Position numbers and translations under genes: made by a program
Notes under the pieces: generated by a model
What the model saw: the letters and a program-made list of their open reading frames with translations, nothing else
Told to the model about the DNA's origin: nothing
The model's database searches: none
NCBI GenBank assembly: GCA_038087875.1
Contig: CM075995.1
Span: 8,868,001-8,932,000 of the forward strand
Reading direction: 5' to 3'
Length of the DNA stretch: 64,000 nucleotides
DNA from: Malacoraja senta
Lineage: Eukaryota
Shown: positions 333 to 63,794 of the stretch, piece after piece
Layout of the letters: each line of letters opens with the position of its first letter
Position numbering within the stretch: position 1 is the stretch's first letter

Positions 333-803
333 TGCTGGAGTAACTCAGCGGGTCAGGCAGCATCGGTGGAGAACATGGATAGGTGACGTTTCACAGAGTG
401 CTGGAGTAACTCAGCGGGTCAGGCAGCATCTGTGGAGAACATGGATAGGTGACGTTTCACAGAGTGCTGGAGTAACTCAGCGGGTCAGGCAGCATCTGTG
501 GAGAACATGGATAGGTGACGTTTCACAGAGTGCTGGAGTAACTCAGCGGGTCAGGCAGCATCTGTGGAGAACATGGATAGGTGATGTTTCACAGAGTGCT
601 GGAGTAACTCAGCGGGTCAGGCAGCACCTGTGGAGAACATGGATAGGTGACGTTTCACAGAGTGCTGGAGTAACTCAGCGGGTCAGGCAGCATCTGTGGA
701 GAACATGGATAGGTGACGTTTCACAGAGTGCTGGAGTAACTCAGCGGGTCAGGCAGCATCTGTGGAGAACATGGATAGGTGACGTCTCGGATCGAGACCC
801 TTC
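333..803 (-). repeat. 66-bp tandem array (7 units), Penelope terminal-repeat derived
   Basis: Unit cacagagtgctggagtaactcagcgggtcaggcagcatctgtggagaacatggataggtgacgttt; degenerate hammerhead remnant at 780-803. Confidence 0.95.
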
Positions 804-837
804 CACTGACTGGATAATCTGATACCTTTCTCCACAG

Positions 838-1290: not shown

Positions 1291-1537
1291 ATGCGTGTAC
1301 TTTTGATATGGTGCATACCTACCAGTGTAATATATATATATTTTTAAGACATTAAAAATGTTGGTTGATTTCTGTCTATAACTTAATATATTAGTCAAAT
1401 GGTTTTTCTTTCACGCTGATCATTGTTTTAAAAGACAAAACATGGCAAAATACATTCCTGAATTGTAATATGGCCGGTCAAAGTTCCTAATTATCACATA
1501 GAAACAAGGAAGTGCAGATTCAGCTTTATACCAAAGA

Positions 1538-2135
1538 CAGAGTGCTGGAGTAACTCAGCGGGTCAGGCAGCATCTGTGGAGAACATGGATAGGTGACATT
1601 TCACAGAGTGCTGGAGTAACTCAGAGGGTCAGGCAGCATCTGTGGAGAACATGGATAGGTGACGTTTCACAGAGTGCTGGAGTAACTCAGGGGGTCAGGC
1701 AGCATCTGTGGAGAACATGGATAGGTGACGTTTCACAGAGTGCTGGAGTAACTCAGGAGGTCAGGCAGCTTCTCTGGAGAAAGTGGATGGATGACATTTC
1801 GCGTCGGGACAGTCTTCAGTCTGAAGCATCTTCATTTTTCAGTCTGAAGAAGGGTCCCGAACAGAAACGTCACCTATCCATGTTCTCCACAGATGCTGCC
1901 TGACCCGCTGAGTTACTCCAGCACTCTGTGAAACGTCACCTATCCATGTTCTCCACAGATGCTGCCTGACCCGCTGAGTTACTCCAGCACTCTGTGAAAC
2001 GTCACCTATCCATGTTCTCCACAGATGCTGCCTGACCCGCTGAGTTACTCCAGCACTCTGTGAAACGTCACCTATCCATGTTCTCCACAGATGCTGCCTG
2101 ACCCGCTGAATTACTCCAGCACTCTGTGAAACGTC
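1538..2135. repeat. Two head-to-head 66-bp arrays (about 4+4 units)
   Basis: 1538-1800 and 1864-2135 are in opposite orientation. Confidence 0.95.
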
Positions 2136-12240: not shown

Positions 12241-12395
12241 GTTGGATGATCAGCCATGATCGTATTGAATGGCGGTGCAGGCTCGAAGGGCCGAATGGCC
12301 TACTCCTGCACCTAATTTCTATGTATCTATGTATCTATGTCCCTCTTAAATCCCTGCCATTTCACATTCTGTCCAAATGTCTTTTAAAAGCCGTA

Positions 12396-12935
12396 GAAGG
12401 GTCTTGACCCGAACCGTCACCCATTCCTTCTCTCCACAGATGCTGGCTGACCCGCTGAGTTACTCCAGCACTCTGTGAAACGTCACCTATCCATGTTCTC
12501 CACAGATGCTGCCTGATCCACTGAGTTACTCCAGCACTCTGTGAAACGTCACCTATCCATTTTCTCCACAGATGCTGCCTGACCCGCTGAGTTACTCCAG
12601 CACTCTGTGAAACGTCACCTATCCATGTTCCCCACATATGCTGCCTGACCCACTGAGTTACTCCAGCACTCTGTGAAACGTCACCTATCCATGTTCTCCA
12701 CAGATGCTGCCTGATCCACTGAGTTACTCCAGCACTCTGTGAAACGTCACCTATCCATTTTCTCCACAGATGCTGCCTGACCCGCTGAGTTACTCCAGCA
12801 CTCTGTGAAACGTCACCTATCCATGTTCCCCACAGATGCTGCCTGACCCACTGAGTTACTCCAGCACTCTGTGAAACGTCACCTATCCATGTTCTCCACA
12901 GATGCTGCCTGACCCGCTGAGTTCGTCCAGCATTT
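12396..12935 (+). repeat. 66-bp tandem array (~8 units)
   Basis: Starts with agaagggtcttgacccgaaccgtc. Confidence 0.95.
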
Positions 12936-13019
12936 TGTGTCTATCGTCGGTGTAAACCAGCACCTACAGTTCCTTCCTACACATTTTAAAAGCCATAATT
13001 TGCTGCATTTTATGTTTAA

Positions 13020-16984: not shown

Positions 16985-18214
16985 TCAGAGTATTGTGAAA
17001 CATAGAAAATAGGTGCAGGAGGAGGCCATTCAGCCCTTCGAGCCTGCACCGCCATTCAATGTGATCATGGCTGATCGTCCCCTATCAATAACCCGTGCCT
17101 GCCTTCTCCCCATATCCCTCGACTCCACTAGCCCCTAGAGCTCTATCTAACTCTCGCTTAAATCCATCCAGTGACTTGGCCTCCACTGCCCTCTGTGGCA
17201 GGGAATTCCACAAATTCACAACTCTCTGGGTGAAAACGTTTTTTCTCACCTCAGTCTAAAATGGCCTCCCCTTTATTCTAAGACTGTGGCCCCTGGTTCT
17301 GGACTCGCCCAACATTGGGAAAAAATTTCCTGCATCTAGCTTGTCCAGTCCTTTTATAATTTTATATGTTTCTGTAAGATCCCCCCATATCCTTCTAAAC
17401 TCCAGTGAATACAAGCCTAGTCTTTCCTCATATGACAGTCCCGCCATCCCAGGGATCAATCTGGTGAACCTACGCTGCACTGCCTCAATCACAAGGATGT
17501 CCTTCCTCAAATTAGGAGACCAAAACTGTACTCAATACTCCAGATGTGGTCTCACCAGATGTGCTGGGCTGTAGGATACAGAGAAACTGCAGGCCCTTCG
17601 GCCCAGCGAGTCCATGCTCGCCATCAATCACCCATTCACGAATCACAAATTTTATGTTATCTCACTTTCTCATCCACTCCCTACAAACTAGGGGGGCAAT
17701 TTGCAGAGGGCCAATTGACCTACAAAGCTGCATGTGGATTTGGATGTGGGAAGAAACCAGAGCACCTGGGGGAAACCCACGGGGTTACATGGAGCATGTA
17801 CAAACTCCACACAGAGACAGCACCCGAGGTCAGGATCGAACCCCCGGTCTCTGGCAGTGTGAGGCGAGATACACGCAAAGTACTGGAGTAACTCAGCGGG
17901 TCAGGCAGCATCTGTGGAGAACATGGATAGGTGATGTTTCACAGAGTGCTGGAGTAACTCAGCGGGTCAGGCAGCATCTGTGGAGAACATGGATAGGTGA
18001 CGTTTCACAGAGTGCTGGAGTAACTCAGCGGGTCAGGCAGCATCTGTGGAGAACATGGAAAGGTGACGTTTCACAGAGTGCTGGAGTAACTCAGCGGGTC
18101 AGGCAGCATCTGTGGAGAACATGGATAGGTGATGTTTCACGGAGTGCTGGAGTAACTCAGCGGATCAGGCAGCATCTCTGGAGAACATGGATAGGTGACG
18201 TTTCGGGTCGAGAC

Positions 18215-30117: not shown

Positions 30118-30416
30118 GTGCTGGACTAACTCGGCAGGTCAGGCAGCATCTGTGGAGAACATGGATAGGTGACGTTTCACAGAGTGCTGGAGTTACTCAG
30201 CGGGTCAGGCAGCATCTGTGGAGAACATGGATAGGTGACGTTTCACAGAGTGCTGGAGTAACTCAGCGGGTCAGGCAGCATCTGTGGAGAACATGGATAG
30301 GTGACGTTTCACAGAGTGCTGGAGTAACTCAGCGGGTCAGGCAGCATCTGTGGAGAACATGGATAGGTGATGTTTCACAGAGTGCTGGAGTAACTCAGCG
30401 GGTCAGGCAGCATCTC
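30118..30416 (-). repeat. 66-bp tandem array (~4.5 units)
   Basis: Directly visible. Confidence 0.95.
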
Positions 30417-32719: not shown

Positions 32720-33045
32720 ATCACCTATCCATGTTCTCCACAGATGCTGCCTGTCCCGCTGAGTAACTCCAGCACTCTGTGAAACGTCACCTATCCATGT
32801 TCTCCACAGATGCTGCCTGTCCCGCTGAGTAACTCCAGCACTCTGTGAAACGTCACCTATCCATGTTCTCCACAGATGCTGCCTGACCCGCTGAGTTACT
32901 CCAGCACTCTGTGAAACGTCACCTATCCATGTTCTCCACAGATGCTGCCTGACCCGCTGAGTTACTCCAGCACTCTGTGAAACGTCACCTATCCATGTTC
33001 TCCACAGATGCTGCCTGACCTGCTGAGTTACTCCAGCACTCTGTC
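32720..33045 (+). repeat. 66-bp tandem array (~5 units)
   Basis: Directly visible. Confidence 0.95.
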
Positions 33046-35304: not shown

Positions 35305-35790
35305 CAGAGTGAGGCCCAACGCAAATTGGAGGAACAGCACCTCATATTTCGCTTGGGCAGCTTACACCCCAGCGGTATGAACATTGACTTCTCCAACTTC
35401 AAGTAACCCTTGCTTCCCCTCTCTCTGGGTCCCTCCCCCACCCTAGTCGCGTACTAGTTTCACTGTCGACCGGTTAAGTTCCACTATCTGTATCTAGTCG
35501 TTATCACCGATTCCACTGCCTACAATGGAGCATTGTGGGCTCCACATTTCCTTGATTATCGTTGCTCTCTGCATATCTTCCACTCATTTATCCTAAGTAC
35601 CGTCTATATCTCTCGCTCCCCTCTCCCCTGACTCTCAGTCTGAAGACGGGTCTTGACCCAAAACGTCATCTATTGCATTTTGCTCCAGAACTGCTGCCTG
35701 ACCCGCTGAGTTATTCCAGCACTCTGTGAAACGTCACCTATCCATGTTCTCCACAGATGCTGCCTGACCCGCTGAGTTACTCCAGCACTG
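35305..35790 (+). mobile_element. Penelope-like element 3' end
   Basis: EAQRKLEEQHLIFRLGSLHPSGMNIDFSNFK* (GIY-YIG tail motif LxPxGxN), then UTR, CTGAAGA-stem-AAAACGTC and two 66-bp units. Confidence 0.75.
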
Positions 35791-36399
35791 TGTGTCTCTG
35801 CAGGGCTCCTGCCATGTTAATGAGCCATTCCAAAAATAAATTATTCATAATATTTTGAAAGCATAAAACCTAGAAAACGTATTAAAGTGAACCGTGTCAA
35901 AGAAATTACCACAGCAAAGGCAATACAGAGGGGAACAATTGGACTGTAAGTATAAATGCTTCTGGCTAATGCCTGCAGGCTCGAAGCGAATGAAATGTTA
36001 AATTCTGTTTTATTAAACCTGACTCTCAAGATTCCAACTGTGAGCCCGCACTTGGAGTACTGTGTTCAGTTTTGCCCACCCTGTTTGACCCTGTTAAGCT
36101 GGAAAGAGTGCAGAGATCATGTAGGAAGGAATTTGTGACGCTTCGGGCTGAGAAGAAGGGTCTCGACCAGAAACGTCACCCATTCCTTCCCTCCAGAGAT
36201 GCTGCCTCTGTCCCGCTGAGTTGCTCCAGCATTGAGTGTCTTATCTTCGGCAGGAAGGAACTGCAGATGCTGGTTTACGCCGAAGACAGACCCAAAAATG
36301 CTGGAGTAACTCGGCAGGACAGGTATCTGAAGAGGGTGACATCTCTTGACCCGAGATGTCACCTACACCTTTTCTCAAGAGTGCAGAGAAGATTTACGT

Positions 36400-36820: not shown

Positions 36821-37464
36821 ATACGGAGAAGATTTACGAGGATGTTTCCGGGACTCGAGAGCCTGAGCTACTGGGATAAGTTGGGCAGGCTAAGACTCTA
36901 TTCCTTGGAGCGCAGGAGGATGAGGGGAGAGAGGTTGTGACATCATGTTGCGGTTGTACAAGACGTTGGTGAGGCTGCTTTGGGGGATTATGCTCAGTTT
37001 TGGTCACCCTGCTATAGGAAAGATGCTGTTAAGACTGTGGAGAATAGTGGCGAGGATGTTGCCAGGGCCTGAGCTACAGGGAGAGAGATTGGGCAGACTA
37101 GGACTTTGTTCCTGAATGCAGAAGGGCACAAGTTCATAGGTTCTAGGAGCAGAATTAGGCCATTCAGCCCATCAAGTGTACTCCATCATTCAATCATGGC
37201 TGATCTATTTTTCCCTCTCGACCCTATTCTCCTGCCTTCACCCCGTAACCCCTGACACCCGTAGTGATCAAGAATCTGTCAATCTCCGCCTCAAAAATAT
37301 CCATTAACTTGGCCTCCACAGCCTTCTGTGGCAAAGAATTCCACAGATTCACCACCCTCTGACTAAAGAAATTGCTTATCATCTCCTTTTTAAAGGTACG
37401 TCCATTTATTCTGAGGCTGCGCCCTCTGGTCCTAGACTCTCCCACTAGTGGACACATCCTCTCC

Positions 37465-37875
37465 TTAGTCCCCCTTCGGTCGTGGCTGGCCATGGGTGTC
37501 TCCAAGGTTGGAGGACGCCTGTGCGTGACTTTGTTTAACGTGGGGAGACTGGTGCACAGACAGCCCCCCCCACGGTCCTTGACAGATCTGGGTCAGGATC
37601 CAGTGGCATGGAGTCCAAGACGACCGGAGACCCTTTTCTGCTGCAGCCTTCATCCGCCTTCCCAGCCGTTGTGACGCTCCACTAAGGTCAGCCATCGTCC
37701 TCCGCCTGTTCCACCGTTGAGGTCTTGGTTGGATTGGCTCTTTGTCAGAGACCTCCCCCTCGACCTTACTGGCATGGGTGGGCCTACCAGGAGAATAGCT
37801 CCAGACGGCATCGCTCTCAGGATCTCAGGTCCACACAAGCTTCTCCACCACGACAAGGTGACAATCCACGGAGAA
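37465..37875 (-). mobile_element. Second copy of the RTE-derived element (duplicate at 41480-41889)
   Basis: 11-bp TSD acatcctctcc (37454-37464, 37876-37886) inside a CR1 fragment. Confidence 0.8.
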
Positions 37876-38038
37876 ACATCCTCTCCAGATCCGCTCTATC
37901 CAGGCCTTTCATTATTCGGTAAGTTTCAATGAGATCCCCCCTCAACCTTCTAAACTCCAGCGAGTACAGGCCCAGTGCCGTCAAACGCTCAGCATGGGTT
38001 AACCCACGAGGGTGAGGGGTGAGATGTTGGCATGGTAA

Positions 38039-38809
38039 TGGGCCTGTCCCACTTCGCCGATTTTTCAGCGGACTGCCAAGTTGCCGGCAGTCGTCTGAAA
38101 AACCGGCAACTGGAACAGCGACTGTCAGAGTGGAACACACACACACACACAAACACAAACACAAAGCTTCCTTCACCAGCCCATTATGCAGGCGGGGACA
38201 GGGTAAGCGGGGGGAGCGCTGTCTAAAAAATTCACACGGTGCAAAGCCAAGGTGATACAGACACACACCGCGATGAACGGGAAGGTTGGAGCTGTAATTA
38301 TGACGGCTAAAGCACAGTGTACGGTAACTCCTTTAAAATGGGGGGGGGGGGGGGGGAGAAGGTGGGAGAAGGAGTGGGGACAACCTTTAAGAAGTCTGTG
38401 AAGCTCGGCGGACATTTAACATTACCGGTCGGTTATCCTTGGTTCTGAAAACTACCGCTTACCTTTTTTTCCCCCGATGAGCCAATGAAATTCACCGGTC
38501 AGCACCGGCTACAACCTACGAGAACCTCTGAGAATCTTTGACCTCCTGGCAACCCACTAGGACCTCCTGGCGACCCACCTACGGCACGGGAATTCTCGCT
38601 ACTCTCCAGGGCGGCTTCATTCCAGTCGCCGCTAATTGTTCAACATGTTGAAAAATTCTCGGCGACCATAATGAGGCCGCGACTAGTTCCCAGAATGCGG
38701 GAACTCCTCACGACCATGAAGGCGACTCCCCGGCAACCACCCGCGAACATGTGGCGATCGCATAGTCTCCTGCAGTCGCCTAAAAAGTCGCCTAAGTGAG
38801 ACAGGCCCA
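38039..38809. mobile_element. PIF/Harbinger-type non-autonomous element (duplicate at 42053-42822)
   Basis: TIR tgggcctgtcccactt / aagtgagacaggccca, perfect TAA TSD. Confidence 0.85.
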
Positions 38810-39252
38810 TAAAAAGTTACAGTCATACAAGACATTGGTGAGGTCGCATTCGGAGCACTGTGTTGAGTTTTGCTCAACACTGTGAACGGAAGGATATCAT
38901 CAAGTTGGAAAGACTGCAGAGAAGATTTACAAGGATGTTGCCGGGACTCGAGGGCCTGAGGTGTAGGGGGAGGTTGAGCAGTCTAGGACTCTATTCCTTG
39001 GAGCCGCCGAAGATAAGAGATGATCTTACAGAGGTGTACAAAATCATGAGGCGGATTAGATCGGGTACTTGCACAGGGTAGAAGAATAAAGAACCAGAGG
39101 ACATAGGTTTAAGACAACATTTTCATTCAGAGGGTGGTGGGTAAATGGGACGAGCTGCCAGAGGAGGGAGTTGAGGCAGGTGCAATAACAAAGACATTTG
39201 AACAGGAGCATGAAGTCAAGAGTCACAGAGTCATACAGCACGGAAACAGGCT

Positions 39253-39615
39253 CCACAGATGCTGCCTGACCCGCTGAGTTACTCCAGCACTCTGAAACAT
39301 CACCTATCCATGTTCTCCACCGATGCTGCCTGACCCGCTGAGTTACTCCAGCACTCTGTGAAGCGTCACCTATCCACGTTCTCCACCGATGCTGCCTGAC
39401 CCGCTGAGTTACTCCAGCACTCTGTGAAGCGTCACCTATCCACGTTCTCCACCGATGCTGCCTGACCCGCTGAGTTACTCCAGCACTCTGTGAAACGTCA
39501 CCTATCCATGTTCTCCACCGATGCTGCCTGACCCGCTGAGTTACTCCAGCACTCTGTGAAGCGTCACCTATCCACGTTCTCCACCGATGCTGCCTCTAAG
39601 TTACTCCAGCACTCT
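39253..39615 (+). repeat. 66-bp tandem array (~5.5 units; ~2.5 units in the duplicate at 43263-43430)
   Basis: Directly visible. Confidence 0.95.
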
Positions 39616-39975
39616 ATCTATCCAGTAACATACCACTCATTAAATTTTACCAACCTTTTTACACCTTGTTTCGGTTTGCTGTTAGCCAGCTAATCTTCTA
39701 GCCCCACTGAAAATCTTTTATGCTATGAATTTTCTATTTCCATCAACCTTTCATGCCTTATCAATGTCTTCTCGAAATCTGTTCTCATTTATCTACAGTG
39801 TATTTTTCTTCGAACATAGAACTGAACACAGGAACAGGCCCACAGGAACAGGCCCACAATAACGGGCCCACAGGAACGGGCCCACAGGAACGGGCCCACA
39901 GGAACGGGCCCACAGGAACGGGCCCATAGCAACAGGCCCATAGCAACAGGCCCATAGCAACAGGCCCATAGCAAC

Positions 39976-40175
39976 NNNNNNNNNNNNNNNNNNNNNNNNN
40001 NNNNNNNNNNNNNNNNNNNNNNNNNNNNNNNNNNNNNNNNNNNNNNNNNNNNNNNNNNNNNNNNNNNNNNNNNNNNNNNNNNNNNNNNNNNNNNNNNNNN
40101 NNNNNNNNNNNNNNNNNNNNNNNNNNNNNNNNNNNNNNNNNNNNNNNNNNNNNNNNNNNNNNNNNNNNNNNNNNN
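39976..40175. other. Assembly gap (200 N)
   Basis: Run of N. Confidence 1.
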
Positions 40176-43100
40176 CGAAGGGCCCCAAACGTCACCCATT
40201 CCTTCTCTCCAGAGATGCTGCCTCTGTCCCGCTGAGTTGGCTCCAGCATTGAGTGTCTTATCTTCGGCAGGAAGGAACTGCAGATGCTGGTTTACGCCGA
40301 AGACAGACCCAAAAATGCTGGAGTAACTCGGCAGGACAGGTATCTGAAGAGGGTGACATCTCTTGACCCGAGATGTCACCTACACCTTTTCTCAAGAGTG
40401 CAGAGAAGATTTACGTTTAAGAAGGAATGCAGATGCTGGAAAAATCGAAGGTAGACAAAAAAAATTGCTGGAGAAACTCAGCGGGTGAGGCAGCATCTAT
40501 GGAGAGAAGGAATAGGCGACGTTTCGGGTCGAGACCCTTCTTCAGACTGATGTTGGGGGAGGGGGTGGGAAAAAGAAAGGAAGAGGCGGAGACAGTGGGC
40601 TGTGGGGAGAGCTGGGAAAGGGAGGGGAAGGAGGGAGAAAGCAGGGACTACCTGAAATTGGAGGTCAATGTTCATACCGCTGGGGTGTAAACTACCCAAG
40701 CGAAATATGAGGTGCTGTTCCCCCAATTTGCGCTGGGCCTCACTCTGGCCATGGAGGAGGCCCAGGACAGAAAGGTCGATTCAGAATGGGAGGAGGAGTT
40801 GAAGTGCTGAGCCACCGGGAGATCAGGTTGGTTAATACGGAGAAGATTTACGAGGATGTTTACGGGACTCGAGAGCCTGAGCTACTGGGATAAGTTGGGC
40901 AGGCTAAGACTCTATTCCTTGGAGCGCAGGAGGATGAGGGGGAGAGGTTGTGACATCATGTTGCGGTTGTACAAGACGTTGGTGAGGCTGCTTTGGGGGG
41001 ATTATGCTCAGTTTTGGTCACCCTGCTATAGGAAAGATGCTGTTAAGACTGTGGAGAATAGTGGCGAGGATGTTGCCAGGGCCTGAGCTACAGGGAGAGA
41101 GATTGGGCAGACTAGGACTTTGTTCCTGAATGCAGAAGGGCACAAGTTCATAGGTTCTAGGAGCAGAATTAGGCCATTCAGCCCATCAAGTGTACTCCAT
41201 CATTCAATCATGGCTGATCTATTTTTCCCTCTCGACCCTATTCTCCTGCCTTCACCCCGTAACCCCTGACACCCGTAGTGATCAAGAATCTGTCAATCTC
41301 CGCCTCAAAAAATATCCATTAACTTGGCCTCCACAGCCTTCTGTGGCAAAGAATTCCACAGATTCACCACCCTCTGACTAAAGAAATTGCTTATCATCTC
41401 CTTTTTAAAGGTACGTCCATTTATTCTGAGGCTGCGCCCTCTGGTCCTAGACTCTCCCACTAGTGGACACATCCTCTCCTTAGTCCCCCTTCGGTCGTGG
41501 CTGGCCATGGGTGTCTCCAAGGTTGGAGGACGCCTGTGCGTGACTTTGTTTAACGTGGGGAGACTGGTGCACAGACAGCCCCCCCCACGGTCCTTGACAG
41601 ATCTGGGTCAGGATCCAGTGGCATGGAGTCCAAGACGACCGGAGACCCTTTTCTGCTGCAGCCTTCATCCGCCTTCCCAGCCGTTGTGACGCTCCACTAA
41701 GGTCAGCCATCGTCCTCCGCCTGTTCCACCGTTGAGGTCTTGGTTGGATTGGCTCTTTGTCAGAGACCTCCCCTCGACCTTACTGGCATGGGTGGGCCTA
41801 CCAGGAGAATAGCTCCAGACGGCATCGCTCTCAGGATCTCAGGTCCACACAAGCTTCTCCACCACGACAAGGTGACAATCCACGGAGAAACATCCTCTCC
41901 AGATCCGCTCTATCCAGGCCTTTCATTATTCGGTAAGTTTCAATGAGATCCCCCCTCAACCTTCTAAACTCCAGCGAGTACAGGCCCAGTGCCGTCAAAC
42001 GCTCAGCATGGGTTAACCCACGAGGGTGAGGGGTGAGATGTTGGCATGGTAATGGGCCTGTCCCACTTCGCCGATTTTTCAGCGGACTGCCAAGTTGCCG
42101 GCAGTCGTCTGAAAAACCGGCAACTGGAACAGCGACTGTCAGAGTGGAACACACACACACACACAAACACAAACACAAAGCTTCCTTCACCAGCCCATTA
42201 TGCAGGCGGGGACAGGGTAAGCGGGGGGAGCGCTGTCTAAAAAATTCACACGGTGCAAAGCCAAGGTGATACAGACACACACCGCGATGAACGGGAAGGT
42301 TGGAGCTGTAATTATGACGGCTAAAGCACAGTGTACGGTAACTCCTTTAAAATGGGGGGGGGGGGGGGAGAAGGTGGGAGAAGGAGTGGGGACAACCTTT
42401 AAGAAGTCTGTGAAGCTCGGCGGACATTTAACATTACCGGTCGGTTATCCTTGGTTCTGAAAACTACCGCTTACCTTTTTTTTCCCCCGATGAGCCAATG
42501 AAATTCACCGGTCAGCACCGGCTACAACCTACGAGAACCTCTGAGAATCTTTGACCTCCTGGCAACCCACTAGGACCTCCTGGCGACCCACCTACGGCAC
42601 GGGAATTCTCGCTACTCTCCAGGGCGGCTTCATTCCAGTCGCCGCTAATTGTTCAACATGTTGAAAAATTCTCGGCGACCATAATGAGGCCGCGACTAGT
42701 TCCCAGAATGCGGGAACTCCTCACGACCATGAAGGCGACTCCCCGGCAACCACCCGCGAACATGTGGCGATCGCATAGTCTCCTGCAGTCGCCTAAAAAG
42801 TCGCCTAAGTGAGACAGGCCCATAAAAAGTTACAGTCATACAAGACATTGGTGAGGTCGCATTCGGAGCACTGTGTTGAGTTTTGCTCAACACTGTGAAC
42901 GGAAGGATATCATCAAGTTGGAAAGACTGCAGAGAAGATTTACAAGGATGTTGCCGGGACTCGAGGGCCTGAGGTGTAGGGGGAGGTTGAGCAGTCTAGG
43001 ACTCTATTCCTTGGAGCCGCCGAAGATAAGAGATGATCTTACAGAGGTGTACAAAATCATGAGGCGGATTAGATCGGGTACTTGCACAGGGTAGAAGAAT

Positions 43101-43642
43101 AAAGAACCAGAGGACATAGGTTTAAGACAACATTTTCATTCAGAGGGTGGTGGGTAAATGGGACGAGCTGCCAGAGGAGGGAGTTGAGGCAGGTGCAATA
43201 ACAAAGACATTTGAACAGGAGCATGAAGTCAAGAGTCACAGAGTCATACAGCACGGAAACAGGCTCCACAGATGCTGCCTGACCCGCTGAGTTACTCCAG
43301 CACTCTGAAACATCACCTATCCATGTTCTCCACCGATGCTGCCTGACCCGCTGAGTTACTCCAGCACTCTGTGAAGCGTCACCTATCCACGTTCTCCACC
43401 GATGCTGCCTCTAAGTTACTCCAGCACTCTATCTATCCAGTAACATACCACTCATTAAATTTTACCAACCTTTTTACACCTTGTTTCGGTTTGCTGTTAG
43501 CCAGCTAATCTTCTAGCCCCACTGAAAATCTTTTATGCTATGAATTTTCTATTTCCATCAACCTTTCATGCCTTATCAATGTCTTCTCGAAATCTGTTCT
43601 CATTTATCTACAGTGTATTTTTCTTCGAACATAGAACTGAAC

Positions 43643-43968
43643 ACAGGAACAGGCCCACAGGAACAGGCCCACAATAACGGGCCCACAGGAACGGGCCCAC
43701 AGGAACGGGCCCACAGGAACGGGCCCACAGGAACGGGCCCACAGCAACAGGCCCCATAGCAACAGGCCCCATAGCAACAGGCCCATAGCAACAGGCCCAT
43801 AGCAACAGGCCCATAGCAACAGGCCCACAATAATAGGCCCACAGGAACAGGCCCACAATCATAGGCCCACAGCAACAGGCCCACAATCATAGGCTCACAG
43901 CAACAGGCCCACAATCATAGGCCCACAGCAACAGGCCCACAATAATAGGCCCACAGGAACAGGCCCTT
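43643..43968. repeat. 14-bp minisatellite (AACAGGCCCACAGG / AACAGGCCCATAGC)n; partial copy at 39828-39975 abutting the gap
   Basis: Directly visible. Confidence 0.95.
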
Positions 43969-44094
43969 CAGCCCACATCGTATGTAAGAAAATGATGCCG
44001 ATAAACTAATCTCCTCTGCCTGCACGTGATCCATATCCCTCCATTCCCTGCACTACCATGTGCCTGTTTAAAAGCCTCTTAAATACCACCGATA

Positions 44095-44415
44095 GAAAGA
44101 CACAAAATGCTGGAGCGGGACAGGCAGCATCTCCGGAGAGAAGGAACGGGTGACGTTTCGGGTCGAAACCCCTCTTCAGACAGATGTCAGGGGGAGAGGG
44201 AGATACATAGATAAGAAAGTGTAGAGTGTGAAACCAGGACAAAGGGGATAGTGATCAAGGAAAATATAGAATAGGAGAAGGTAACAATAAAGCAAACAGA
44301 TAAAATGTAGTTAGAAGTCAGACTGGTCGGAGAACTGCGAAGAGGGGAGAGGATGGAAGGCAAGGGTTACTTGAAGTTAGAGGTCACTGTTTATACCGCT
44401 GGGGTGTAAGCTGCC
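44095..44415 (-). mobile_element. Penelope-like element 3' end
   Basis: GIY-YIG tail remnant, UTR and CTGAAGAGGGGTTTCGACCCGAAACGTC motif at ~44152-44179. Confidence 0.65.
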
Positions 44416-47410: not shown

Positions 47411-48590
47411 CATTCTTGCCCCCAATTCTAGCCTCTAATGTTGGCCCCTAATTCTTGCCCTCTAATTCTAGCCCTCTAATTCTAGCCCTCTAATTCTAGC
47501 CCTCAATTCTAGCCCCAAATTCCAAGCCCCAAATTCTACCCTCTAATTCTAGCCCCTAATTCTAGTCTCTAATTCTAATTATAGCTCTCTAATTCTAGCC
47601 CCCTAATCATAGCCCTCTAATTCTAGCCTCTAATTCTTGCCCCTAATTCTAGCCCCCTAATTCTAGCCCCCTAATTCTAGCCCTCTAATTCTTGCCGCTA
47701 ATTCTAGCCCCCTAATTCTAGCCCTCTAATTCTAGCCCTCTAATTCTTGCCGCTAATTCTAGCCCCCTAATTCTAGCCCTCTAAATTCTACCCCTCTAAT
47801 TCTACCCCTCTAATTCTACCCCTCTAATTCTAGCCCCTAATTCTAGCCCCTAATTCTACCCTCTAATTCTACCCCTCTAATTCTAGCCCCCTCTAATTCT
47901 ACCCTCTAATTCTACCCCTCTAATTCTAGCCTCTAATTCTACCATCTAATTCTTACCCTCTAATTCTAGCCTCTAATTCTTGCCCCTAATTCTAGCCTCT
48001 AATTCTACCCTCTAATTCTAGCCCCTAATTCTAGCCCTCTAATTCTACCCCTCTAATTCTACCCCTCTAATTCTACCCCTCTAATTCTACCCCTCTAATT
48101 ATAGCCCCTAATACTAGCCTCTAATTCTATCTAATTCTAGCCTCTAATTCTAGCCCTCTAATTCTACCCCTCTAATTCTAGCCCCTAATTCTACCCCTCT
48201 AATTCTAGCCCCTAATTCTAGCCTCTAATTCTAGCCCCTAATTCTAGCCCTCTAATTCTACCCTCTAATTCTACCCCTCTAATTCTAGCCCCTAATTCTA
48301 GCCTCTAATTCTACCCTCTAATTCTAGCCCTCTAATTCTTGCCCCAAATTCTAATTCTAGCCCCTAATTCTAGCCCCCTAATTCTAGCCCCTAATTCTAG
48401 CCCCTAATTCTAGCCCCCTAATTCTAGCCCCCTAATTCTTGCCCCAAATTCTAATTCTAGCCCCTAATTCCAGCCCTCTAATTCTACCCTCTATTTCTAC
48501 CCCTCTAATTCTAGCCCCTCTAATTCTTGCCCCTAATTCTACCCTCTAATTCTACCCTCTAATTCTTACCCCAAATTCTAATTCTTGCCC
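47411..48590. repeat. ~1.2 kb minisatellite of a 12-14 bp unit (TAATTCTAGCCC[T]C)n
   Basis: Directly visible, with strong C/G strand skew. Confidence 0.95.
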
Positions 48591-49284
48591 CCCCCCCCCG
48601 ATATCTTTCTTTTTTTCTAATCGCGTGGAATACAAAACCGACCTGAATATATATACTAGGTGTGTGGAGAAAGACATTGCTATCCATCCACCCACCAAAT
48701 GATGTTGGCCACCGGGCTGAGATTCACAGACGGGGCAACCTATGTCTCAGGGTTGCGAGCTGCCTTTATGTAATTTCGAATGCAATATAAGGGAGACATT
48801 AAAGGCTTACCTGTCCCCGGGAACGGTGCAGTCTGGCTGGGGACGATGTCTCCGTCTGCGATGGTCCGTATGTGCTTCATTTAGACCAACCTGGCAGCGA
48901 GCAAGGCCAGAAATGCCACTTGAATCGGCTCCGTCATCTGACTGTCGCCTCCAATCTCCATAATCTTTTCCGCAATGCTGGGTGAAATTCTCCAGTGGGA
49001 GGGGGTGTAATGGGGGTGTAAGGGGGGGGGGGGGGGGGGGGGGTTTAAAATTAAACAGCGCCTGCTCGACAGAAAAAACCAGACACAATAGAGATCAGAT
49101 GTAAGGAGGAACTGCAGATGCTGGATTACACCGAGGACAGAGACACACACGAAAAAGCTGCACGACTCTAGTCCAAAGACGTGCAGGGTTGTCGGCTCAT
49201 TGGCTTCTGTAAATTGTCCCCAGTGTGTAAGATGGTGCTGGTGTACGAGGTGAAAGGGAAAACGAGAGATACAGACAGTGCTAT

Positions 49285-49319
<35 letters not shown>

Positions 49320-49423
49320 CAGTTTCCTTTATCATCCTCACTTTTTTTGTGCATATTTCATTCATTTGTTCTATATTTCTCCACATCACCGTCCAAATCT
49401 CCTGTTTCCCTCTCCCTGACTCT

Positions 49424-49459
49424 CAGTCTGAAGAAGGGTCTCGACCCGAAACGTCACCT
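49424..49459 (+). ncRNA. Minimal type-I hammerhead ribozyme motif (Penelope-type) at the head of a 66-bp array
   Basis: CUGAAGA (49428-49434), A, stem II GGGU-CUCG-ACCC, GAAAC-GUC (predicted cut after 49455), with palindromic ACGU in place of stem III. Stem I is only ~2 bp, so activity is uncertain. Confidence 0.55.
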
Positions 49460-50160
49460 ATCCATGTTCCCCACAGATGCTGCCTGACCCGCTGAGTTAC
49501 TCCAGCACTCTGTGAAACGTCACCTATCCATGTTCCCCACAGATGCTGCCTGACCCGCTGAGTTACTCCAGCACTCTGTGAAACGTCACCTATCCATGTT
49601 CTCCACAGATGCTGCCTGACCCGCTGAGTTACTCCAGCACTCTGTGAAACGTCACCTATCCATGTTCCCCACAGATGCTGCCTGACCCGCTGAGTTACTC
49701 CAGCACTCTGTGAAACGTCACCTATCCATGTTCCCCACAGATGCTGCCTGACCCGCTGAGTTACTCCAGCACTCTGTGAAACGTCACCTATCCATGTTCC
49801 CCACAGATGCTGCCTGACCCGCTGAGTTACTCCAGCACTCTGTGAAACGTCACCTATCCATGTTCCAGCAGCATCTATGGAGCGAAGGAAATAGGCAACG
49901 TTTCAGCCCGAAACCCTTCCGGGTTTCGGCCCGAAACGTTGCCTATTTCCTTCAGGGTTTCGGCCCGAAAGTTTGCCCATTTCCTTCGCTCCACAGATGC
50001 TGCCTGACCCGCTGAGTTACTCCAGCACTCTGTGAAACGTCACCTATCCACGTTCTCCACAGATGCTGCCTGACCCGCTGAGTTACTCCAGCACTCTGTG
50101 AAACGTCACCTATCCATGTTCTCCCACAGATGCTGCCTGACCCGCTGAGTTACTCCAGCT
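49424..50160 (+). repeat. 66-bp tandem array with hammerhead head and internal fold-back cassette
   Basis: About 6 units + cassette (49868-50003) + about 3 units. Confidence 0.95.
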
Positions 50161-50193
50161 TTTTGTGTCATCAAGAGGGAGGTTCAGTCTGAC

Positions 50194-50228
<35 letters not shown>

Positions 50229-51854
50229 CCCCCCGCCGCTCCTCCTCTCTCTCCCACCCACCCACCACCTCTCAGCTAACTCCCTGGGATTACAAAGATT
50301 CAGCTTGATGGAGGAATAGACTAGAGTCCACGGAGATGAGGAGAAAGACATGATTGCAGCCACCGGATACAAACGAGTGCTTTCTGTCCAGAACCTGGCA
50401 ACAGCTTTCATCCCTGGGTTCATAGTTTTATTATAGTTGAGATACAGGCCCTTCGGCCCACCGAGTCCATGCCGGCCGTTGATTACCTGTACACCAGCAC
50501 TATCCTACACACACTAGGGACAATTTACACAAATCATTATGTCTCCGTTGCGAATTAACCGACAAACGTGCACGTCTTTGTAATCGAGACATGAAGTCAT
50601 ACAGCGTGGATACAGGCCCTTCGGCCCGACATGTCCCAGCTACACTAGTCCCACCTGCCCGCATTTGGTCCATATCCCTCCAAACCGGTCCTAGCCATAT
50701 ACCTGTCTAACAGTTTCTTAAACGTTGGGATAGTCCCAGCCTCAACTACCTCCTCTGGCAGCTCGTTCCATACACCCACCACCCTCTGTGTGTGAAAATA
50801 CTCTATTGGTGAGGCCAATTCTGGAGTATGGTGTACTCCATACTACTGAGAGTAGGGAAGATTCAAACAAGGGGACATGACTTGAGAATTAAGGAACAGA
50901 AGTTCAGGGGTAACATGAGGGGGAACTTCTTTATTCAGAGAGTGGTGGGTGTGTGGAATGAGCTTCCAGTGAAGGTGGTGGAGGCAGGTTCGTTTTTATC
51001 ATTTAAAAATAAATTGGATAGTTATATGGACGGGAAGGGAATGGAGGGTTATGGTCTGAGCGCAGGTATATGGGACTAGGGGAGAATACGTGTTCGGCAC
51101 GGACTAGAAGGGTCGAGATGGCCTGTTTCCGTGCTGTAATTGTGATATGGTTATATGGTTATATTGTTAAAATGCAGCCTCAACAATGTCTTATACAACT
51201 GCAACATGACCTCACAACTTTTATACTCGTCATACTACGTGGAAACAGGCCCTTCGGCCCACCAAATCAGGGCTGTATACTGGCACTATCCTACACACTA
51301 GGGACAATTTACAGAAATTGTTATGTTTCTATTGTCAATTAACCTACGATTCTGCACGTCTTTAGAAAAGAATCATAGGGTGTGGAAACAGGCCCTTCGG
51401 CCCACTGAGTCCACGCAGACCAGCAATCACGCTAGTTCTATCCTACAGACTAGGGACACTTTACAGAAGTAAATTAACCTACAAACCTGCATCTCTTTGG
51501 AACAGTCAGAGCGTGGAAACAGGCCCTTTGGCCCAACCTGCCCAAGCATGTCCCATCTACACTAGTCCCACCTGCCTGTGTTTGGCCCATATCCCTCCAA
51601 ACCTGTCCTATGCATGTAGCAATGTGGGAGGAAACTGGAGCACCCGGAGAAAACCCACATGGTCACAGGGAGAACGTGCAAACTCCGGACTGACACCACC
51701 TGTAGTCAGGATTTTACTTGGGACTCTGGTGCTGTGAGGCAGCAACTCTACCAGCTACACCACTGGACAAAAATACAAAGAGTGGAGCTTCCACTGATAT
51801 AACCGCTTGGGTTTAGACAGATGCAACAGAAGATGCTGGCTTACCAAGGAAAGG

Positions 51855-52225
51855 CACAGAGTGCTGGAGTAACTCAGCGGGTCAGGCAGCATCTGTGGAG
51901 AACATGGATAGTGACGTTTCACAGAGTGCTGGAGTAACTCAGCGGGTCAGGCAGCATCTGTGGAGAACATGGATAGGTGACGTTTCACAGAGTGCTGGAG
52001 TAACTCAGCGGGTCAGGCAGCATCTGTGGAGAACATGGATAGGTGACGTTTCACAGAGTGCTGGAGTAACTCAGCGGGTCAGGCAGCATCTGTGGAGAAC
52101 ATGGATAGGTGACGTTTCAGGTCGGGACCCTCGTTCAGATCGAAGGTGGTCGACTCTGAAGAAGGGTCCCATCCCAAAACGTCACCTATCCATGTTCTCC
52201 ACAGATGCTGCCTGACCTGCTGAGT
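51855..52225. repeat. 66-bp array (4 units) followed by an inverted partial unit
   Basis: Directly visible. Confidence 0.9.
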
Positions 52226-52426
52226 TTAGACTTTACTTTGGAATTGATTTACTTTGGAATTACTTTGGATATGAATGTTATACTGAATCATAGGCTTGAT
52301 ACGACAAGTAAAAAGAAGAATAAGAACCAGTTAACAAAACTACTAAACACTACCTGTGAAGAATTTGGTTTTCTTGATGTCTGGAGGAATTTTCACCCTC
52401 TAGAAAGAGACTATACAGATTACTCA

Positions 52427-54136: not shown

Positions 54137-57100
54137 ATACCGCACTCAGTTTACTCCAGAATAGACCATTTCGTAATGCAGAAAGAAGACTGTTATAGGG
54201 TAACGGATTGCAGAATTGGTGTGGCAGACGTATCAGACCATAATGCCATATTCTTAACAATTCAAATGGACAGTGGAAGGAAAACACAGTGTGGCGATTA
54301 AATGTTGGAATACTGAATGATAAAACAACTGTTAATGGCATTAAATTGGAAATCAAAAGTTATCTAGAGGAGAATGACAATGGGGAGGTGGACCCATCCA
54401 TACTATGGGACTCATTGAAGGCTGTAATACGAGGTAGGTTAATAGCTAGGGCATCATATATTAAAAAGGCCAGAATGAAAACATATAATAAGTTGATATT
54501 AGACCTGAAGGATTTAGAACAGAAGTACAAAAATAATAAGGACCAGAGAACTTATAAACAAATAGAAAATTTGAGGGGACAAATGCACGGAATATTGGGT
54601 CAAGAGGTGGAGAAAAAAGCAAGATTTGTAAAACAGGCACATTATGAGCTAGGTGCTAAATCCACTAAAATACTTGCCCGGAGGCTACGCAAACAACAGG
54701 CTGACAACACCATACACAAAATTAAGGACCCCCTGTACACAGTAATTGAAGAGTGATCCAAAAGAAATAGAATATATCTTAGATAATAGACAATAGGTGC
54801 AGGAGTAGGCCATTCGAGGAATCTTCCAGGAATATTATAAGGAATTATATACACAAACCTCTACAGTAGATGGGGAATCAATGAGGACTTTTTTTAAGTA
54901 CGATAGATCTGCCCTGTATTGGAGAGACACAAAATAAAATAATCACAGCAGAAATATCGCTGGAGGAGATAGAGAAGGCAATTGGTGGGATGAAAACAAA
55001 CAAGGCCCCAGGCAGCGAAAGTTTCCCTGTAGTATGGTATAAAATATTTCGGAATGAGCTGAACCCACTTCTTCTGAGAACCTTTAACTGGATTATCAAA
55101 GAAGGCAAGACACCCCCGTCATGGAAAGAGGCAATTATAATATTAATCCCCAAAGAGAACAAAGACAAGGAAAATTGTACCAACTACAGACCGATATCAA
55201 TTCTAAATGTGGACTATAAATTATATTCTTCAATTATCTCCAAACGATTTGAAACGTTCATGCCAGATGTAATTGATGAAGACCAGACTGGTTTTATAAT
55301 AGGCAGACAAACACAGGACAGTATTAGAAGAATCCTACATATAATACACAAGATTCAAAAGGAAAGTACGCACGCTGTCCTGATAAGCCTAGATGCGGAG
55401 AAGGCTTTCCATAGGGTTAATTGGGATTTCTTATATCAAACACTAGAAAGATTTGGCTTTACTGAAGATTCAATGCAAGTTATTAAAGCAATTTACCAGC
55501 AACCTACTGCAAGAGTAAAGGTGAATGGGTCCTTAACTGAGAGATTTGTGTTAGGAAGAGGAACGAGACAGGGATGTTGTCTCAGCCCTACCCTGTTTGC
55601 TATATATATTGAACCATTGGCTCAAGCGATTCGTCAAGATAGGGAACTGAGGGGAGTAACTATAAGAGACAAAGAACATAAAATTGGCCTTTTTGCAGAT
55701 GACGTAATGATGTATCTCACGGAAGTAAACGCCTCCTTTCCAAGGATGATGGGGATCATAGAGAAATTTGATTTTTATGCAGGATATAAAGTGAATATTT
55801 CAAAAACTCAAACCCTCCTATTTAATTGTGCTCCTCCAGAAGAAATCAAACAAAAGTATAATATTAAATGGGATTCAAAATGAATCAAATACCTAGGGAT
55901 ATATATAACAAAAAATATATCAATGTTGTATGGGGCCAATTATAATCACATCAACCAAAACATAAGAAAGGATATAGAAAGATGGTCCATCTACCCAATG
56001 GATTTTAGTAGTAAGATAAATGTGGTGAACATTAATATTTTGCCAAGACTATTGTACTTGTTTCAATCTCTGCCAATAGAGATACCATTAAAACAATTCA
56101 CGGAATGGGATAAATTAATATCTCGATTTACTTGGGGAGGGAAGAAGGCCAGAGTTCGATACACTACACTCCAGTTGCCAAAGGACAAAGGTGGAATGGC
56201 ACTTCCAAATTTTAGGATATATTTCTATGCAGCCCAACTTCGACCACTAATTAATTGGTGTCAGGACAGCTATATAGCTAGGTGGAAAGAGATTGAGACA
56301 TATATCCCTGACTTCCACATCCAAACACTCTTGGGAGAAAAAGTGCTTCCTGGACATATCAGGAGTATAATCGATCCAATAACGATATTTACTTTAGAAA
56401 CCTGGTTTGCTCTTACCAGACAACTTAAACTGAATAAAGGACAAAAAGTTTTAAGATGGATAGCTGTGGATAATGAATTTAAACCAGGGATGTATGACTC
56501 AACATTTAAAGAGTGGATGAAGAAAGGAATGACTGCATTTTGTACTGTTATTGAAAATGGAGACCTAAGAAGTTTTCAAGATTTGAAGGATAGATTTGCA
56601 CTTCGGAACCAAGACTTGTTTAGATCCCTCCAACTGAGAGATTATTACAATAAAAAAATAAAAAGGGAGGCACTAGAAGAAAAGAATCCAGTGACAGTTA
56701 ATACGTATCATCAAAAACCATCAAGGATTATTTCTAAACTTTATCATAGTTTAATGGAATGTCAAGCTAAAACTACATTGTATGTCAAATTTAAGTGGGA
56801 AAAGGAATTGAACATCACAATCTCAGAAGAAGAATGGCATCATGTGTGGGTAACACTACAGACATCCACTAATTCACAAAAATGGAGAATTTAATTGGAA
56901 ATTTTTGATTTGTTTCTTTAGTACGCCTAACATAAAAAGCAAGCAAATTCTAAGGCAGCAAATATGCTGGAGGCAATGTGGCCAAACAGACGCAAATCAT
57001 GCACATCTCTTCTGGAGTTGCCCAAAAATAGAACCATTTTGGGACAGAGTGAATTCAGAATTAAAGGAGGTATTAGGATATATAGTCTCCAAGAAGTGTT

Positions 57101-59669: not shown

Positions 59670-60067
59670 AGTGCTGGAGTAACTCAGCAGGTCAGGCAGC
59701 ATCTGTGGAGAACATGGATAGGTGACGTTTCACAGAGTGCTGGAGTAACTCAGCGGGTCAGGCAGCATCTGTGGAGAACATGGATAGGTGACGTTTCACA
59801 GAGTGCTGGAGTAACTCAGCGGGTCAGGCAGCATCTGTGGAGAACATGGATAGGTGACGTTTCACAGAGTGCTGGAGTAACTCAGCGGGTCAGGCAGCAT
59901 CTGTGGAGAACATGGATAGGTGACGTTTCACACAGTGCTGGAGTAACTCAGCGGGTCAGGCAGCATCTGTGGAGAACATGGATAGGTGACGTTTCACAGA
60001 GTGCTGGAGTAACTCAGCGGGTCAGGCAGCATCTGTGGAGAACATGGATAGGTGACGTTTCACAGAG
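59670..60067 (-). repeat. 66-bp tandem array (6 units)
   Basis: Directly visible. Confidence 0.95.
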
Positions 60068-61173: not shown

Positions 61174-61840
61174 CACAGAGTGCTGGAGTAACCCAGCGGG
61201 TCAGGCAGCATCTGTGGAGAACATGGATAGGTGACGTTTCACAGAGTGCTGGAGTAACTCAGCGGGTCAGGAAGCATCTGTGGAGAACATGGATAGGTGA
61301 CGTTTCACAGAGTGCTGGAGTAACTCAGCAGGTCAGGAAGCATCTGTGGAGAACATGGATAGGTGACGTTTCACAGAGTGCTGGAGTAACTCAGCGGGTC
61401 AGGAAGCATCTGTGGAGAACATGGATAGGTGACGTTTCACAGAGTGCTGGAGTAACTCAGCAGGTCAGGAAGCATCTGTGGAGAACATGGATAGGTGACG
61501 TTTCACAGAGTGCTGGAGTAACTCAGCGGGTCAGGCAGCATCTGTGGAGCGAAGGAAATGGGCAAACTTTCGGGCCGAAACCCTGAAGGAAATAGGCAAC
61601 GTTTCGGGCCGAAACCCGGAAGGGTTTCGGGCCGAAACGTTGCCTATTTCCTTCGCTCCATAGATGCTGCCGGAACATGGATAGGTGACGTTTCACAGAG
61701 TGCTGGAGTAACTCAGCGGGTCAGGTAGCATCTGTGGAGAACATGGATAGGTGACGTTTCACAGAGTGCTGGAGTAACTCAGCAGGTCAGGAAGCATCTG
61801 TGGAGAACATGGATAGGTGACGTTTCAGGTCGGGACCTTT
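61174..61840 (-). repeat. 66-bp tandem array with internal fold-back cassette, in the last intron of the TRNAU1AP-like gene
   Basis: Cassette at 61535-61670. Confidence 0.95.
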
Positions 61841-63794
61841 CTGTGGACCTTCTCTGAAGCTAGTGATCCAAAGAACAGCAGGCAAGTTTCCCCCACCCCA
61901 ACACAACTTCTTGCACGGAGATGGCAGTGTGCCTTTGCCGCAAGCTGCCAAAGGAGGTACTCGAGACAGACACTACAACACCATTTAAATTACACTTAAA
62001 AGCCAGTCTTCAATTATTGCATCAGTTGTGTAGTGCAGGCAAGATGCACATTAAAAAAAAAAAAAAAAATCTCAATATAAAGTTTTCTCCACTGTCAGAA
62101 ATTTCCCAACATGGGTCAGAGGGTGGTGAATATGTGGAATTCATTGCCACAGACAGTTGCGGAAGTCACGTCAGCAGATATATTTGTACGGCAGAGATAG
62201 ATAGATCCTTGATTAGTACGGGTGTCAGAGGTTATGGGGAGAAGGCAGGAGAATGTGGTTAGGAGGGAGATAGATCAGCCGTGAATGAATGACAGATTAG
62301 ACTCAATGGGCCGATTGGCCTCATTCTTTTCCTATCCCTTATGACCTTATGTACCCAGTATTGGTGGGAAGACACTTCCTTTATGATCTTATGACATGAA
62401 AAGTTAACAAATGTATTTTAAAGGTGGTTATTGTACTTGCTCTGGCAGTTTTGTTTTCCATATACCAAACACCCTCTGAAGAAACACAGGCTTGTAGGTT
62501 AATTGGCTTCTGTAAATTGTCCCTAGTGTGTGTAGGATAGTGCTAGTGTACGGGGTGATCGCTGGTCAGCGTGGACTCGGTGGGCCGAAGGGCCTGTTTC
62601 CACACTGTATCCCTGAAGTCTAAAGATACTAAACCTTCACTGCAAATCCAAACCGAGCACAATACCCCAAATGTGGCCTCAATGTCTTGTACAGATACTT
62701 GAAGCAATAAGTCAAATGGTGCAGATAACTAGAGATACACAGCACAGAAACAGGCCCTTCAGCCCAACTTGCCCACTGGCCAACATGCCCCATCTACACT
62801 AGTCCCACCTGCCTGCATTTGGCCCATATTCCTCTATATCCATGATATCCAAACATCACCCATTTTTTATCTCCAGAGATGCTGCCTGTCCCACTCCAGC
62901 AATCTGTGTCTATCAATGATAGGATACACATCTTCCTTAGGGCTTACTACAGGTTGGATGAGTGGGCAGATGCCGTTTAATGTGGATCAATGCGAGGTTA
63001 CTGAAAGTAAGCATGGAGGTACAGCAGGTAGTGATGAAAGTGAATGGCATGTTGGCCTTCATAACACGAGGAGTTGAGTATAGGAGCAAAGAGGTCCTTC
63101 CGCAGTTGTATTGGGTCGTAGTGAGACCACACCTGGAGTATTGTGTGCAGTTTTGGTCTCCAAATTCTTGCTATCAGGGAGTGCAGCGTAGGTTCACAAG
63201 GTTAATTCCCGGGATGGCAGGACTGTCATATGCTGAGCGAATGGAGCAACTGGGTTTGTATACTCCGGAATTTAGAAGGATGAGAGGATATCTTATTGAA
63301 ACATACAAGATTATTAAGGGTTTGGACACACTAGAGGCAGGAAACATGTTCCCGATGTTGGGGGAGTCCAGAACCAGGGGCCACAGTTTCAGAATAAGGG
63401 GCAAGCCAGTTAGAACGGAGATGAGGAAACACTTTTTCACACAGAGTGGTGAGTGTGGAATTCTCTGCCTCAGAGGGCGGCGGAGGCCGGTTCTCTGGAT
63501 ACTTTCAAGAGAGAGCAAGATAGGGCTCTTAAAGATAGCGGAGTCAGGGGATATGGGGAGAAGGCAGGAACGGGGTACCGATTGGGGATGATCAGCCATG
63601 ATCACATTGAATGGCAGTGCTGGCTCGAAGGGCCGAATGGCCTACTCCTGCACCTATTGTCTAAATCTAATTTCGCAGCGATAAATGAAAACAATTTTCT
63701 CAATATTTTTAGCTTTTCCAAGTCACCACAAACACAACAAATATCACAAGGACAGGCTGCGTAATGAAGAAATCAATGCTGAATATAGGCTCAC

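Follow-up and report, generated by a model that had tools for sequence, protein, structure and literature searches.

How tandem repeats, with no transposase to move them, come to occupy thousands of new loci is a question of long standing. It is raised by a stretch of 64,000 nucleotides from Malacoraja senta (assembly GCA_038087875.1, contig CM075995.1, positions 8,868,001 to 8,932,000 of the forward strand; hereafter the window), in which arrays of a 66-bp unit are scattered and one of them, the focal array, follows a hammerhead motif. A preliminary description of this DNA proposed that the catalytic head travels with such arrays and cuts their transcripts into 66-nt monomers. Here the age, distribution, and inserted DNA of the arrays are set against this proposal and its alternatives.

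Arrays of the window and their Penelope parent

Tandem Repeats Finder and a BLAST map place 14 arrays of the unit on both strands of the window (Table 1), the number and orientations given previously, although those at 39253 and 43266 lie within a duplicated segment flanking an N gap and are probably a single event. Each unit begins with GAAACGTC, which occurs 64 times in the window versus 0.98 expected by shuffling. As had been described, the units lack CUGANGA and stem II; each retains GAAAC-GUC and the self-complementary ACGU. Three units of the array at 12395 were duplicated in place. The head listed earlier at 52157 precedes a 72-bp single partial unit and not an array, and the 124-bp palindromic insert of the focal array had been overlooked.

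Table 1. Parts of the focal array and positions of its sister arrays in the window
Feature	Position	Strand	Remarks
Inverted remnant of Penelope-end tail, upstream of focal element	49100..49160	-	Reverse complement of the tail following monomers; by eye
Old Penelope-like 3' UTR remnant (resident host element)	49322..49427	+	Like the upstream sequence type before the head in monomers L004, L007, L015, L020
Minimal type I hammerhead core	49428..49455	+	CUGAAGA, stem II 49436-49447, GAAAC, GUC; predicted cut after 49455; stem I 2 bp
Six full 66-bp units and 22 nt of a seventh	49448..49865	+	Tandem Repeats Finder, BLAST map
124-bp cargo, head-to-head palindrome of another Penelope-end subfamily, without CUGA box	49866..49989	+	DNA hairpin -39 kcal/mol
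Remainder of interrupted unit, one full unit, and last unit	49990..50159	+	BLAST map
Monomer-type tail of resident element	50160..50169	+	Sequence comparison with monomers
Sister array, 7 units, decayed head	333..812	-	
Sister array, 4 units, decayed head, diverged first unit	1537..1824	-	Head-to-head with 1839-2135
Sister array, 4 full units, stem II of head broken	1839..2135	+	
Sister array, 8 units	12395..12938	+	First unit and tail of other subfamily around young units
Sister array, 5 units, head reduced to stem II	17876..18214	-	
Sister array, headless	30118..30415	-	
Sister array, headless	32721..33044	+	
Two-unit array, first unit old, second young	35632..35793	+	3' flank orthologous in organisms B and C
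Sister array, headless	39253..39615	+	Duplicate at 43266-43430
Copy of the 39253 array within duplicated segment	43266..43430	+	
Sister array, 4 units, decayed head	51856..52139	-	Head-to-head with partial monomer 52155-52226
Sister array, 6 units, headless	59670..60061	-	
Sister array with same 124-bp cargo as focal array	61175..61842	-	Cargo at 61548-61670

Several further features of the window were recorded. The duplicated segment is a direct duplication of approximately 4 kb (~36150-44200) that may be an assembly duplication. Penelope ends lie head-to-head at 1537-2135 and 51856-52226, with one or both partners turned into arrays. The unit equals 22 codons and is stop-free in one frame antisense to the hammerhead, so that arrays contain long spurious open reading frames. 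Other repeats include a LINE at 7528-12240 (plus strand) that follows a perfect 91-bp tandem repeat, has long open frames (323, 544, and 571 aa), looks young, and is presumably CR1-like; broken frames of an endonuclease/RT element at 54244-56894 (plus strand), which we take to be L1/Tx1-like; approximately 85 copies of a 13/14-bp satellite at 47412-48580; and 14-bp arrays at 39827-39968 and 43642-43966, which resemble a motif of an abundant SINE-like repeat and may be a second repeat-derived minisatellite.

The exact 31-base head occurs 13,276 times in the 1.94-Gb genome, and the first 100 matches listed are distributed steadily across 8.4 Mb. Nearly all head loci examined (29 of 30) are single truncated ends of several subfamilies, some of them head-to-head. 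Truncated Penelope ends number tens of thousands genome-wide, are evenly placed, and share a core at unit positions ~23-60. At locus L223 (6870-9170, minus strand), a 5'-truncated Penelope-like element (PLE) retains a 558-aa open frame with reverse transcriptase (RT) and GIY-YIG domains and a Cys-rich linker (RVT_1, E 6e-6; GIY-YIG, E 6e-4; both slightly below the Pfam cut-offs). Because this frame ends 118 nt before the head and body of a sister subfamily, the repeat family can be assigned to a hammerhead-bearing PLE end of the sort reported in PMC4209133. The Penelope origin suggested earlier is thereby upheld: judged by sequence, the arrays have their source in an RT+GIY-YIG element, at the end that carries the hammerhead.

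Condition of the hammerhead heads

That many arrays begin with a hammerhead or a decayed version of one, as first described, holds in part. All parts of the minimal type I motif of PLEs (CUGANGA, stem II, GAAA, NUH, palindromic stem III) are present at 49428-49455, with the 2-bp stem I noted earlier. However, this is the only one of the 14 window arrays with an intact minimal core (CUGANGA, 4-bp stem II, GAAA, and UH), and four have no head at all; stem II is broken at 1844, GAAA is missing at 35640, and CUGA is missing at 12396 and ~18200. The sample of arrays from array-rich regions runs the same way and speaks against the model of the preliminary description: intact cores are rarer on arrays (11 of 63 scorable heads) than on monomers (142 of 423; p=0.009), and the exact head was found in 3 of 120 sampled arrays.

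Stem I of minimal PLE hammerheads is described as 4-5 bp long, or 2 bp in a D. virilis variant (PMC4209133); among 160 heads, its pairs 1 and 2 are kept in 82% and 89%, and pairs 3 and 4 in 3% and 1%. Stem II had been thought to vary between subfamilies with its pairing kept. The GGGU-UUCG-GCCC form occurs in monomers and cargo and hardly in array heads. It alters only one side of a pair (U-A to U-G), and in 160 distinct monomer heads none of the common pair types showed compensation on both sides; as worded, the claim is not confirmed. An Rfam scan gave no hammerhead family match at E<=10, and only sub-threshold miRNA matches for the cargo hairpin. When the head was forced to fold on the next unit, the structure exceeded the minimum by 7.4 kcal/mol, its pairs had probabilities near 0.003, and only approximately 6 bp would hold the substrate to the core; folding of head plus unit was not unusual (z=-1.26). 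Array 5' ends coincide with the predicted cut site in 4 of 117 cases versus 24 of 670 monomers, without enrichment.

For related elements, weak cleavage of minimal PLE hammerheads, in dimeric form, is reported (PMC4209133). In the anole PLE, cleavage requires protein, insertion in vitro does not need cleavage, and no RNA-seq reads end at the cleavage site (PMC11167929). In M. senta, the hammerhead is broken before most arrays, and their spread is probably not driven by it.

Distribution, age, and cargo of the arrays

The junction between units has one exact form, which occurs 14,149 times genome-wide; on the largest scaffold it is absent up to 2.69 Mb and thereafter appears every few kb. Scaling from our sample together with these exact junctions gives approximately 5,500 arrays within about 58 Mb. 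Arrays occur only in patches, most of them no further than 4 Mb from a scaffold end. In forty 10-kb samples distributed over C1 and C19 (400 kb; junction search tolerating 4 mismatches in 27) we found 130 monomers and no arrays, versus 670 monomers and 120 arrays in five array-rich regions (1.26 Mb; p=4e-9) that were picked from match lists and hence selected for holding arrays. Of the long cargo described below, 97 of the 100 copies listed first lie at most 4 Mb from a scaffold end, a zone that makes up 13.7% of the sequence of those scaffolds; two patches are interior to the largest scaffolds (C1, ~219-227 Mb; C2, ~86-91 Mb). Shark chromosome ends are described as distinct in GC and tandem repeat content (PMC10620051). 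GC content was ruled out as the cause of the patchiness, samples from the same scaffold at 48-51% GC being free of any junction.

Within these arrays, the old head and tail belong to a resident Penelope-end copy, and the young, near-identical units between them keep its register. The 261 interior units of the 120 sampled arrays differ from one consensus at 1.2% of positions (213/17,213), with a highest value per array of 6.8% and a 90th percentile of 3%. At positions 1-11, divergence is 12.7% in first units and 12.0% in monomers versus 1.4% in interior units; it falls to 1.3% in first units by positions 45-58 and rises to 9.5% in last units at positions 59-66. Counted by unit, 56 of 71 first units versus 77 of 242 interior units carry a change within positions 1-27, and 45 of 96 last units versus 20 of 242 interior units carry one within positions 57-66. 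Bodies of another subfamily were found in 15 of 102 first units and in none of 242 interior units. Assembly polishing is an unlikely reason for the uniform interiors, since private and higher-order variants are retained and exact words recur in runs of other organisms.

When each array head is compared with whichever of three head types fits it best, divergence is 16.2% (3 of 71 are perfect), a value possibly somewhat inflated by local alignment; at non-diagnostic columns array heads diverge by 12.2% versus 7.3% for monomer heads. The hairpin is not simply hypermutable, because like stem-II hairpins within cargo are only 0.6-1.9% diverged, and hypermutability was rejected as the reason for old heads. 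Arrays keep a link between head type and tail type (14:9 vs 4:15, OR 5.8, p=0.013; 11 arrays with untyped tails and arrays without a typable head left out), more weakly than in monomers (OR 31). The 5'-end positions of arrays and monomers are distributed alike (KS p=0.57). Target site duplications (TSDs), scored as exact flank matches of 9 or more, came out at shuffle level for arrays (2 of 99; shuffles 0-3); among monomers, such matches flank 35 of the 244 young ones and 5 of the 164 old ones. Head divergence, the several subfamilies, monomer-like truncation, head-tail linkage, and the lack of TSDs together identify the head as a resident landing pad, outside the moving unit. On the simplest reading, arrays occupy Penelope ends that already existed, and the hammerhead is likely a relic of this landing pad and not needed for spread.

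The head type most similar to the unit is over-represented among arrays (33/74 vs 71/574); it accounts for 11.1% of rich-region monomers versus 17.8% in the background (p=0.07), and for 15.7% when arrays are added back. Unit variants were common to units of one array in 34 of 146 cases, and single-base unit variants are not clustered by region (32/1,375 vs 73/3,185 pairs, p=0.47). In the L081 array, old head-proximal body with a private change flanks the young core on both sides, like a target duplication.

Beyond M. senta, runs of eight further organisms contain 30-35% of the words of 48600-50500, approximately the array's share, as scored by words. In contigs of organisms B and C, the last unit of the array at 35632 is followed by the flank known from the window, with 2.7% and 4.3% difference, so the host end predates their split. 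A search of 35290-36140 in four DNA runs, in which family copies swamped the matches, recovered no contig spanning this array in B or C and no monomer orthologue.

The DNA carried between units provides a second record of spread. The 124-bp cargo of the focal array is 99% identical to the insert of its sister array (Table 1). The left edge of this short cargo has 1,179 copies genome-wide, always within arrays and behind differing old heads, with 0-11 junctions before and 0-6 after among the matches listed. A long form (299 copies, 251 with exact left edge) consists of the short form plus approximately 45 bp without match to the Penelope end; units of 190 and ~320 nt are moved within multimers. 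Spread between loci, as previously supposed, is borne out by the single junction and by cargo at 1,430 places. Since left edges (1,179+251=1,430) are nearly as frequent as right edges (1,549; ratio 1.08), one-sided loss of cargo, which reverse transcription with 5' truncation would produce, has been rare. The upstream junction is absent in only 1 of 64 short and 0 of 14 long copies, so that much cargo may move from array to array.

Cargo types are patch-specific. Of the first 100 listed long copies, 46 fall in C5:1.8-3.5 Mb and none in C2:86.6-91.1 Mb, where at least 80 short-cargo copies were listed. The window's own sub-variant has 24 copies, 11 of them within 0.9 Mb on the same scaffold and on both strands (5/10 local vs 0/29 elsewhere; 3/7 without the window's two copies, p=0.005). 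Another variant reached 4/10 in one patch, having been picked from that patch. Yet one of the three variants tested is scattered across many scaffolds (27 copies), and unit point variants are unclustered; spread is therefore both local and between chromosome ends. At C1:2,770,900 (L138), a 226-bp spacer in an array consists of tail, unrelated DNA, and full head, and may be another captured cargo.

Modes of spread and comparison with known systems

We consider it probable that young units were copied from other arrays into old Penelope ends by homology-directed DNA repair, mainly near chromosome ends. The founding tandem junction would have arisen once, perhaps through a 5'-truncated copy inserting behind another. 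A break in a resident end would then be repaired on an array template, either chromosomal or circular (interlocus gene conversion or reintegration of a DNA circle), and where both break ends pair with different units, units would be gained and the resident core overwritten. DNA bracketed by units on both sides rides along as cargo, and arrays additionally duplicate units in place. Some observations sit uneasily with this account. If random monomers were simply converted, array heads should not be more diverged than monomer heads, yet they are; an older subfamily, mutagenic junctions, or alignment bias are possible reasons. The failure to find a monomer orthologue in contigs of B and C, none of which spans the array, the lack of regional clustering of unit variants, the scattered cargo variant, the near-constant upstream junction of cargo, the weaker head-tail linkage, and the selection of rich regions for their arrays also count against it. 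Conversion over only 30-60 bp at 85-95% homology is demanding, and the gain of arrays over monomers is one that we infer. Immunity to Penelope nicking through the absence of ATT (0 sites in the unit) is not supported, as the favoured hosts mostly lack ATT as well.

The main rival, which we regard as unlikely, is RNA-templated homing: the Penelope endonuclease would nick its own resident ends, an uncut array transcript would serve as template for the RT, and homology would join the resulting cDNA to the old head. A partner with RT, GIY-YIG, and a long open frame is present, PLEs tend to insert in or beside earlier copies (PMC6765202), and the enzyme of the anole PLE works with uncleaved RNA and makes nicks in its own pLTR (PMC11167929); the switch from old to young sequence is also wider at the 5' than at the 3' side, and right cargo edges slightly exceed left ones. 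However, the anole enzyme, as described there, initiates at fixed sites non-homologous to the target, which predicts fresh TSD-flanked insertions in unrelated DNA, whereas array ends are monomer-like without TSD excess, 5' truncation within cargo is slight, and same-family monomers are evenly spread while arrays are confined to patches. Still less probable is a history in which old multi-unit elements retrotransposed long ago and their interiors were later homogenised from array to array, monomers rarely having become arrays. Old heads enriched for one subfamily, cargo with junctions on both sides in nearly all copies, and array-type words in the eight other organisms agree with such late homogenisation; against it stand the absence of old arrays where conversion should be weak (none in the 400 kb of spread samples), the low ceiling of interior divergence, and the first units from other subfamilies.

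The originally proposed route, retrozyme-like, in which an intact head cuts each downstream unit and Penelope RT amplifies 66-nt monomers or circles, is very improbable. Each unit does keep the GAAAC-GUC and ACGU elements, the focal head is intact, and weak dimer cleavage has been described for this hammerhead class (PMC4209133), but heads are older than units, intact ones are rarer on arrays, ends are not piled up at the cut site, few base pairs would hold the substrate and the fold is costly, cargo travels within multimers, and TSDs are lacking. Independent growth of each array in place, with slippage or unequal exchange at its own Penelope end, is scarcely credible. In-place duplications exist, both at 12395 and in variants shared within arrays, and local amplification of PLE ends is the model presented in 10.64898/2026.07.22.740005. 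Such growth would, however, copy the resident's own old sequence and yield many junctions, instead of a single one and interior units free of other-subfamily bodies; as sole cause it is contradicted by identical cargo at more than 1,400 places.

Returning to DNA-templated copying, we tentatively advance a broader reading: that a selfish 66-bp multimer, protein-free and ribozyme-free, may home by overwriting dead Penelope ends through break repair or a borrowed Penelope nick, patchwise at chromosome ends, vectoring bracketed DNA that includes a non-Penelope piece at approximately 300 sites. Each event is readable from its old subfamily-marked ends, its young core, and cargo lineages that mark donors, and with approximately 5,500 events, tract length, homology need (30-60 bp), donor distance, and chromosome-end bias become measurable in a vertebrate-sized genome. 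A hammerhead preceding a tandem array need not imply a retrozyme, and an alternative account is offered for PLE-derived multimers, not monomers, gathering at chromosome ends.

Subtelomeric minisatellites change by break-induced gene conversion, mainly between alleles of one locus. The arrays resemble them in end bias, units of 10-100 bp, variant patchwork, and in-place duplications, and differ in that one unit occupies thousands of loci and appears to found new arrays ectopically. With the PLE pLTR and its minimal hammerhead (PMC4209133; PMC11167929) they share head, body, and tail, corresponding to the 3' end of an RT+GIY-YIG element, as well as head-to-head pairs, a short stem I, and a palindromic stem III; unlike the pLTR, the array unit comprises only 66 bp from the interior and always has the same junction, and its spread departs from the even spread of monomers. 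Non-LTR retrozymes of animals are likewise tandem repeats from PLE ends, with 2-12 units (PMC7229834; 10.64898/2026.07.22.740005), and in Xenopus, as here, monomers are even and multimers lie at chromosome ends or centres. As defined in the 2026 preprint (10.64898/2026.07.22.740005), which includes one cartilaginous fish, a retrozyme has a complete hammerhead in at least two consecutive units. Because the 66-bp units lack CUGANGA and stem II, the arrays are by that definition not a retrozyme; they also differ in having no TSDs and mostly dead heads. No description of the 66-bp repeat was found in the literature searched, which covered few subscription journals and not Repbase.

The closest described case is the seeding of Rsp-like repeats into 1.688 in Drosophila simulans and mauritiana (PMC7403614), for which interlocus gene conversion or extrachromosomal circular DNA is proposed. 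There too a young repeat spreads by landing in an older, abundant, dispersed repeat, junctions are shared, and mixed clusters move as units; the 66-bp arrays likewise are young arrays flanked by an older resident repeat, with their junction shared across loci. Rsp-like and 1.688, as that report describes them, are unrelated repeats joined by 4-7 bp of microhomology at tens of loci on one chromosome, whereas the 66-bp arrays derive from their target, land in register in single retrotransposon ends, and occupy thousands of loci on many scaffolds with traceable cargo. The process is probably a form of repeat-seeded satellite spread, unusual in its scale and in its traceable cargo.
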